From assembly GCF_041886205.1 (NCBI RefSeq), contig NZ_CP169029.1: a stretch of DNA of 64,000 nucleotides, one strand, 5' to 3'. The stretch is from Escherichia coli. Its GTDB lineage: Bacteria > Pseudomonadota > Gammaproteobacteria > Enterobacterales > Enterobacteriaceae. This document shows positions 52,001 to 55,000 of the stretch, piece after piece. Position numbers: made by a program. How positions within the stretch are numbered: position 1 is the stretch's first letter; the number at the start of each line of letters is the position of its first letter.

Positions 52001-55000
52001 ACCCAGCACAACACGCCAGACGGCGGCATTCCGACCATCGGTTTACCGGGCTATTCTGCCCCATCTGCGGGAACGGCGGCCCTGAATCATTCCGGAAAAG
52101 TGGATACTCATAACTTTTACGGCACGGATTCCGATTACGACGATTCGACCACCGACACCGCTACCATGCGTTTTGAGCACGACATCAACGATAACACCAC
52201 CATTCGCAATACTACCCGTTGGTCGCGCGTGAAGCAGGATTACCTGATGACGACGATTATGGGCGGGGCGTCGAATATTACCCAGCCCACCAGCGATGTG
52301 AATAGCTGGACCTGGTCACGCACGGCGAATACTAAAGATGTGAGTAATAAAATTCTCACCAACCAGACCAACCTGACCTCGACGTTCTATACCGGTTCTA
52401 TCGGTCATGATGTCAGTACCGGCGTGGAATTTACCCGTGAAACGCAGACTAACTACGGCGTTAATCCGGTGACGTTACCGACGGTAAATATTTATCATCC
52501 TGACAGCAGCATTCATCCCGGCGGCCTGACGCGCAACGGCGCAAACGCCAATGGTCAGACGGATACCTTCGCAATTTACGCCTTCGATACGCTGCAAATC
52601 ACCCGTGATTTTGAGCTGAACGGCGGGATCCGTCTGGATAATTATCATACTGAATATGACAGTGCCACCGCCTGCGGCGGCAGCGGACGCGGTGCCATCA
52701 CCTGCCCTGCTGGCGTGGCAAAAGGTTCTCCGGTCACCACCGTCGACACCGCCAGGTCGGGCAATCTGGTGAACTGGAAAGCCGGGGCGCTGTATCACCT
52801 GACGGAAAACGGCAATGTCTATATTAACTATGCCGTTTCCCAGCAGCCTCCGGGCGGCAACAACTTCGCCCTTGCGCAGTCTGGCAGCGGTAACAGTGCC
52901 AACCGCACCGATTTTAAACCGCAAAAAGCCAACACCAGCGAGATTGGCACCAAATGGCAGGTTCTGGATAAACGCCTGTTGCTCACCGCCGCGCTGTTCC
53001 GTACTGATATCGAAAATGAAGTTGAGCAAAATGATGACGGGACTTACTCGCAATACGGTAAGAAACGCGTCGAAGGCTATGAGATATCCGTAGCCGGGAA
53101 TATCACTCCCGCCTGGCAGGTGATTGGCGGCTATACCCAGCAAAAAGCAACCATCAAAAACGGCAAAGATGTTGCCCAGGATGGTTCCTCATCGCTGCCG
53201 TATACCCCGGAGCACGCCTTTACCTTATGGAGCCAGTATCAGGCAACCGATGATATCTCTGTTGGCGCAGGCGCACGCTATATCGGTAGTATGCATAAAG
53301 GTTCAGACGGCGCGGTGGGAACGCCAGCGTTTACCGAAGGTTACTGGGTCGCCGACGCTAAACTGGGGTATCGGGTTAATCCGCAATCTCGACTTCCAGC
53401 TAAACGTCTACAACCTGTTTGATACCGATTACGTCGCCTCAATCAACAAGAGCGGCTACCGTTATCACCCGGGCGAGCCAAGAACCTTCCTGCTCACGGC
53501 CAATATGCATTTCTGATTCAGATGTGGGGCGCAGGCCCCACTTTTTGGAGAACTTGTATGATGTACCACATTCCCGGCGTGCTATCGCCAAAGGACGTCG
53601 CCCGGTTTCGCGAACAACTGGAACAAGCCGAATGGGTGGATGGACGCGTCACCACCGGCGCACAAGGTGCGCAAGTTAAGAACAATCAACAGGTAGACAC
53701 CCGCAGCACGTTATACGCCGCCCTGCAAAATGAGGTGCTGAACGCGGTTAACCAACATGCTTTGTTCTTTGCCGCGGCCTTGCCGCGTACCCTTTCCACG
53801 CCGCTGTTTAATCGCTATCAGAACAATGAAACCTATGGTTTTCATGTGGATGGCGCAGTACGCAGCCATCCACAAAACGGCTGGATGCGCACTGACCTTT
53901 CTGCCACGCTGTTTTTAAGCGATCCACAAAGCTACGACGGCGGCGAACTGGTCGTTAATGACACCTTCGGGCAGCATCGGGTAAAACTTCCGGCAGGCGA
54001 TCTGGTGTTGTATCCCTCCAGCAGCCTGCATTGCGTGACGCCCGTAACCCGCGGCGTACGAGTGGCATCATTTATGTGGATCCAGTCGATGATCCGCGAT
54101 GATATAAAGCGCGCCATGCTGTTTGAACTGGACAACAATATTCAGTCGCTGAAAAGCCGCTACGGCGAAAGTGAAGAGATCCTGTCGCTGCTCAATCTTT
54201 ATCATAATCTGCTGCGGGAATGGTCGGAGATCTGACGCTTGAACTGCCCGAGTTCGTCCCTATATTAGCTACACTTAACTGTACAAGTATTGATATGGGG
54301 AGGACGATATGGCATCCGGTTGGGCTAACGATGACGCCGTCAACGAACAGATCAACAGTACAATTGAAGATGCGATTGCCCGCGCTCGGGGTGAAATTCC
54401 GCGTGGCGAAAGCCTGGATGAATGTGAAGAGTGCGGTGCCCCCATACCGCAAGCCCGTCGGGAAGCCATTCCTGGCGTGCGCTTATGTATTCATTGTCAG
54501 CAGGAGAAAGATTTACAAAAACCAGCTTATACAGGATATAATCGCAGAGGTTCGAAAGACAGCCAGTTACGTTAACTATAACTGGCGGGATGTATAGCGA
54601 GTATAATTTGTATTTTGCGTGACATTCCGTGCCTTTAACGCTGTTGTGACTGCCACGCTGCATAAAACAAGTCCATATGTACAGCAAATAAATGGTTTAT
54701 CAGTATGTTAGATATCAATCAATTTATTTGAACAAGGCAGTCAATTCTCTTCGATTTTATCTCTCGTAAAAAAACGTGATACTCATCACATCGACGAAAC
54801 AACGTCACTTATACAAAAATCACCTGCGAGAGATTAATTATGAAAACTATCAATACTGTTGTTGCTGCTATGGCTCTTTCAACTCTGTCATTTGGCGTGT
54901 TTGCCGCGGAACCGGTAACGGCATCCCAGGCACAGAACATGAATAAAATCGGCGTGGTTTCTGCCGATGGCGCATCCACCCTCGATGCCCTGGAAGCGAA

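Follow-up and report, generated by a model that had tools for sequence, protein, structure and literature searches.

We analysed a 64,000-nucleotide stretch of the Escherichia coli contig NZ_CP169029.1 (assembly GCF_041886205.1), hereafter called the window, and found that fiu, the gene of a TonB-dependent catecholate receptor, is interrupted near its 3' end by one extra C. The useful result is that the lesion was pinned to a single base and that, among all genomes compared, it is private to this record. The gene as written should give no functional receptor, judging from a structural model of the intact protein. There is, in our estimate, an even chance that the extra C is a genuine and very recent null mutation that doubled one C at codon 717.

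The fiu reading frame and its one-base insertion

The fiu ORF occupies 51233-53422 on the plus strand and encodes 729 amino acids, 716 native residues followed by 13 aberrant ones, with the end ...GYRVNPQSRLPAKRLQPV*. Translation of the other frames located the displaced native C-terminus in the +1 frame, which is open from 53124 to 53516, and the two fragments aligned, in two frames, with one full-length homologue. Base-level alignment with the nearest complete genome, wlxctx60 (NZ_AP045833.1), revealed a single extra C at 53381/53382, where the window reads AATCCGCAAT and wlxctx60 reads AATCGCAAT; the string quoted in the initial annotation is GTTAATCCGCAAT, and its wlxctx60 counterpart is GTTAATCGCAAT. 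The change at 53381-53382 (+) is from C to CC in the codon context GTT AAT CCG CAA TCT, a single C standing here in every relative aligned at base level, and the position of the added C inside the dinucleotide is arbitrary. The frame is lost at codon 717, which begins at 53381. From there, frame translation gave an aberrant tail of 13 codons, PQSRLPAKRLQPV, closed by a premature TGA at 53420-53422 (the whole at 53381..53422, +), 94 bases ahead of the native stop.

The DNA on the 5' side of the insertion (51233..53380, +), which covers codons 1-716 with the signal peptide, the plug and barrel strands 1-20, is identical to that of wlxctx60. On the 3' side, the native end of the gene (53382..53516, +) is preserved in the +1 frame as RNLDFQ...TANMHF*, comprising codons 717-760 and the stop, and with them strand 21, loop 11, strand 22 and the terminal Phe. 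Removal of one C in silico produced a single 760-aa ORF identical to the Fiu of wlxctx60 (WP_000430060.1), and no second, compensating indel was present downstream of the insertion in the alignments with wlxctx60 and with a draft clone-mate assembly, GCA_017787525.1. The initial annotation had blamed the frameshift on one surplus nucleotide at this place, and had held that one nucleotide fewer would return a 760-aa ORF. The single indel in the alignment and the deletion in silico bear out both statements, and the range that it gave, 53360-53430, takes in the insertion as well as the premature stop.

By its sequence, domain content and context, the gene is fiu. The broken ORF scored 1397 bits against the NCBIfam Fiu equivalog NF007349 (cut-off 686), covering profile positions 1-717 of 760 only, whereas the repaired allele, which is also that of the relatives, scored 1503 bits and covered positions 1-760. 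Pfam placed the plug (PF07715) at residues 68-168 and the TonB-dependent barrel (PF00593) at residues 257-718, and both the broken and the intact form showed the plug at 68-168 and a barrel domain from 257. The match is not due to chance, because the equivalog hit extends over 1-717 of 760 positions and the intact allele matches PDB 6BPM. The gene order rlmF, mcbA, fiu, ybiX, ybiI is common to the window and all relatives, and the window is collinear from 45545.

The flanks of the gene were also inspected. A consensus scan found a promoter-like site at 51082-51109, overlapped by a Fur-box-like AT-rich sequence, GATAATGCTTATCAAAATTATTATC, at 51104..51128 (+), 5' of fiu. In this upstream region, no stretch came closer to the 19-bp Fur consensus than 5 mismatches, a weak match, so that a Fur operator at 51104..51128 is putative. 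The upstream region is identical to those of wlxctx60 and the clone-mate, both of which have an intact fiu. In the gap between fiu and ybiX, the consensus scan alone marked a putative terminator at 53524..53551 (+), a GC-rich hairpin (53524-53541) followed by a T run. The next gene, ybiX (53558..54235, +; PF13640 and PF18331; so named in the relatives), encodes a PKHD-type 2OG-Fe(II) hydroxylase and is intact.

Features missing from the truncated product

To see what the shortened product lacks, we used a structure prediction for the intact allele, whose input was an alignment of 85 full-length sequences from a diverse homologue set. The AlphaFold2 model (mean pLDDT 90.2, pTM 0.89) has 22 barrel strands, as does the Fiu crystal structure (PMC6926462), and its last three strands span residues 704-714, 719-726 and 751-759. 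On the model, the reading frame changes in the periplasmic turn that follows strand 20, at residue 717. The encoded product keeps 20 strands and is without strand 21, extracellular loop 11, strand 22 and the terminal Phe. Of the 16 columns that are invariant among the 85 aligned homologues, two (N724 and N727) lie in the lost 44 residues, as do the nearly invariant Y733, G747 and R750. Of the 85 homologues, 73 end in Phe and 7 in Tyr. The aberrant product ends in ...RLQPV, that is, in Val, while the native ...ANMHF is encoded in the +1 frame only. The loss of C-terminal barrel strands and of the terminal aromatic residue, as initially annotated, is thus confirmed and can be specified as strands 21 and 22 of the model and a last position at which 80 of 85 homologues have Phe or Tyr. 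These results indicate that the encoded product fails two defining features of Fiu, the complete 22-strand barrel and the C-terminal aromatic beta-signal.

Closure of the barrel needs the last strand paired with strand 1, and a barrel deprived of its last strand would be unable to close. The BAM complex recognises a C-terminal signal whose last residue is Phe or Tyr (PMC3706956); the truncated Fiu without this signal would be expected to stay unassembled and to be degraded in the periplasm. Because the product lacks both the last strand and the BAM signal, the fiu allele of this record is expected to be a null allele, as general knowledge of outer-membrane protein assembly would predict.

Distribution and origin of the insertion

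The fiu region was found in 5,419 of 5,426 complete E. coli genomes by a 161-mer search, and none was identical to the window. A 41-mer centred on the insertion, which can seed a match only where the insertion exists, had no match in the same 5,426 genomes. A 24-mer across the insertion gave zero matches in metagenome contigs and GTDB species-representative contigs, and the exact 729-aa product was not found among about 15 billion proteins. Over positions 45545-64000 of the window (18.5 kb), wlxctx60 differed by 4 SNPs and exactly one indel. Related assemblies, 16-17 in number, were retrieved via the neighbouring proteins; fiu was called as 760 aa in all of them, and the extra C occurred in none of the alignments printed. 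Comparison with fiu alleles of related strains had been proposed at the outset as a check, and it found the base in no relative aligned.

The closest relative was the draft GCA_017787525.1. Its contig AAZUDJ010000004.1 aligned with window positions 41233-63516 over 22,284 positions; there were 0 mismatches, and the only gap was at the extra C. This draft also carries the same genomic island beside glnP and a clone-specific synonymous SNP at 57322. The SNP lies in ybiB, where an A is common to the window and GCA_017787525.1 only and 12 other relatives have G. The part of the window around cdiBA, 11942-35836, was matched at 100% identity, with 0 mismatches and 0 gaps, by GCA_026907365.1, GCA_012375395.1 and the Logan assembly of SRR24310361. 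Because the cdiBA region is 100% identical in these three further assemblies, the source is, by sequence, a member of a repeatedly sampled, nearly invariant clone. Since the clone-mate with an intact fiu is identical but for one base, the insertion belongs, in this comparison, on the terminal branch; being private to this record, it does not represent a lineage pseudogene.

The island occupies window positions 1-45545. It is a mosaic that separates glnH from glnPQ and ends in the REP-like sequence of the glnH-glnP intergenic region, and the same island end was present at the same site in at least 7 other assemblies. Its content includes ISL3 and IS66 transposase remnants, a T6SS VasL/ImpA_N protein, a NERD-UvrD helicase, cdiB (26153-27919, -) and cdiA (16361-26140, -), and orphan PT-VENN/Ntox28 toxin and CdiI_3 immunity modules. 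A CP4-like module after the cdi genes comprises a GTPase, DUF932, antirestriction, RadC, CbeA/CbtA and DUF4942 genes. Strain EC28 has a similar island at another place, adjoining the kps cluster. A helicase/ankyrin-repeat gene at 29621-32215 (-) is intact in the window (864 aa); the EC28 copy, which differs by a 4-bp indel at 31780-31785, carries the annotation of a frameshift and an internal stop.

Several further features of the window were recorded outside the island. About 140 bp between glnQ and ybiO (47025-47163) are missing in several relatives, whose alignments break at 47024/47164, and this is probably a REP-type insertion/deletion polymorphism. An ORF of 561 aa at 62295-63980 (+) without a Pfam match is 514 aa long in wlxctx60, where GAA is changed to TAA at window position 63837; here the truncating allele is that of the relative. 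A tRNA-Ser(gct) call by ARAGORN at 57864-57948 (-), inside dinG, is annotated in no relative and is probably a false positive.

The initial annotation had left a choice between a true pseudogene and a sequencing error. That alternative stands in narrowed form: a lineage pseudogene is excluded from it by a lesion that is private to the record and is the sole difference from the clone-mate over 22.3 kb. Apart from the extra C, fiu of the window does not differ from that of wlxctx60 or the clone-mate, and the lesion is for this reason either young or artefactual. Were it real, the untouched promoter, start codon, plug and remaining gene, together with the intact clone-mates, would point to a young event after which decay has not yet begun. 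The extra C may instead be an error of base calling or consensus in the source assembly, in which case fiu of the organism itself would be intact and functional, as in all the clone-mates; we consider this a serious possibility, with a probability that falls a little short of even. Single-base indels are the main residual error class in long-read assemblies. Repeats in the window break the short-read assemblies of the clone-mates (contig ends at 41000, 35836 and 11942), and a repeat-rich island that fragments them suggests a long-read source for this record. An error would also agree with a lesion that is unique across all collections searched, that lies in a gene with no other signs of decay, and that is the sole difference from GCA_017787525.1, an indel with no SNP beside it. 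The quality of the remaining sequence argues against it. In the comparison with four independent clone-mate assemblies, covering 46,412 bases, the extra C was the only discrepancy, and the source was otherwise flawless even in the homopolymers where errors concentrate (229 of 229 runs of at least 5 bases concordant, and 19 of 19 runs of at least 7). The comparison with EC28 (14.1 kb at 99.3%) showed no indel on the window side, its only indel being on the EC28 side. No Dam, Dcm or EcoKI motif and no homopolymer was found at the insertion site. Such a site, neither homopolymer nor motif, is away from where consensus errors cluster. A generally noisy assembly had been considered as well and was rejected, no other single-base indel being present relative to wlxctx60 (18.5 kb), EC28 (14.1 kb) or the four clone-mates (46.4 kb).

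Two other readings would leave the extra base real and give it a different meaning, and we regard both as exceedingly improbable. In one, programmed +1 ribosomal frameshifting or transcriptional slippage would restore full-length Fiu, and the geometry would allow it, as no stop interrupts the +1 frame across the site and a +1 shift at codon 717 would yield the native protein. This is the arrangement of prfB, likewise with two overlapping frames whose +1 fusion is the full protein. The present case is not a member of that class: the sequence is in frame in the 17 related assemblies and in all 5,419 complete genomes, so the arrangement is not conserved, and AAT-CCG-CAA offers neither a slippery codon beside a stop nor a prfB-like upstream Shine-Dalgarno stimulator. 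Slippage of the polymerase is countered by the absence of an A/T run at the site. The other reading takes the frameshift as an old, lineage-wide pseudogene, similar to the reductive loss of fiu in Shigella, or as a phase-variable contingency switch. The bare presence of a frameshift speaks for it and nothing more, while every relative, clone-mates included, has the gene intact, 5,419 of the 5,426 complete genomes have fiu, and the window copy has accumulated no extra lesions or substitutions relative to wlxctx60 and the clone-mate. A contingency switch is further disfavoured by the site itself, a CC dinucleotide with no homopolymer or short tandem repeat tract.

Expected consequences and comparison with known systems

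If the extra C is a genuine mutation, cefiderocol has lost one of its two main entry gates in this isolate, and siderophore microcins one of their three receptors; by itself this would be a small phenotypic change. It would also mean that even a lesion as late as 44 codons before the end of the gene can produce a null allele of a barrel protein. If the base is an artefact, it matters for annotation only, a functional core gene having been labelled a pseudogene in error. Three redundant receptors, Fiu, Cir and FepA, take up the microcins H47, I47, M and E492 (PMC10233263). As cited in two papers, loss of cirA or fiu singly in E. coli alters the cefiderocol MIC about 2-fold, and loss of both alters it 16-fold (PMC12480463, PMC11939791). 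A mild phenotype is expected here, because Fiu is one of three redundant receptors and single knock-outs have an effect of about 2-fold. One of three catecholate uptake routes would be lost, FepA and CirA would remain, and iron supply would be little affected. The isolate would be slightly less susceptible to siderophore microcins and to catechol-cephalosporins, cefiderocol among them, and more strongly so only if cirA were also lost. With the terminator-like hairpin between the two genes, a strong polar effect on ybiX would not be expected.

It has also been considered that the insertion is both real and adaptive, Fiu having been knocked out under siderophore-microcin competitors or catechol-type antibiotics in a single member of a clone that hardly varies, as a first step towards double loss of cirA and fiu; we regard this as unlikely. 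The description of Fiu as a phage and colicin receptor, given in the initial annotation, holds for colicins in a historical sense only, as the determinants of the former colicins G and H are those of microcins M and H47 (PMC10233263). The phage part was not upheld: no phage of the BASEL collection had a growth phenotype on fiu::kan (PMC8594841), and the literature searched gave no support for Fiu as a phage receptor.

The closest known counterpart of the gene is Fiu of E. coli K-12 (PDB 6BPM/6BPN/6BPO), whose gene is the same and has the same position, mcbA-fiu-ybiX-ybiI. Once repaired, the product aligns with the whole mature 6BPM chain with five substitutions, whereas the product encoded in this record ends after 716 native residues, without strands 21-22 and the terminal Phe. 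The PhoE work of Struyve et al. (1991) is said to have dealt with loss of the C-terminal Phe, or beta-signal, in outer-membrane proteins; compared with a PhoE-type loss of the last residue only, the entire last hairpin is gone here. In outer-membrane proteins that lack the C-terminal aromatic signal, BAM-dependent assembly is blocked (PMC3706956), and Fiu would be expected to fail in assembly in the same way.

Similar lesions have been described in Klebsiella pneumoniae. In ST323, an A inserted after nucleotide 652 of fiu leads to a stop after residue 250 and has been linked to cefiderocol resistance (PMC11939791). This is likewise a frameshift by single-base insertion that inactivates fiu in a natural isolate. 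However, the ST323 lesion is early, common to the outbreak isolates and accompanied by a cefiderocol MIC, whereas the one described here lies at codon 717 of 760, in one record, and is seen in sequence alone. A late frameshift is provided by CirA Val611TyrfsTer32 of K. pneumoniae FK3023, for which complementation showed loss of function; CirA is a paralogous 22-strand TonB-dependent catecholate receptor, and it likewise lost its C-terminal barrel strands (PMC13077954). That lesion is a 119-bp deletion in another gene and another species, in contrast to the 1-bp insertion in the window. The fiu lesion of this record is a new allele of a well-known kind, the frameshift inactivation of a TonB-dependent catecholate receptor gene.
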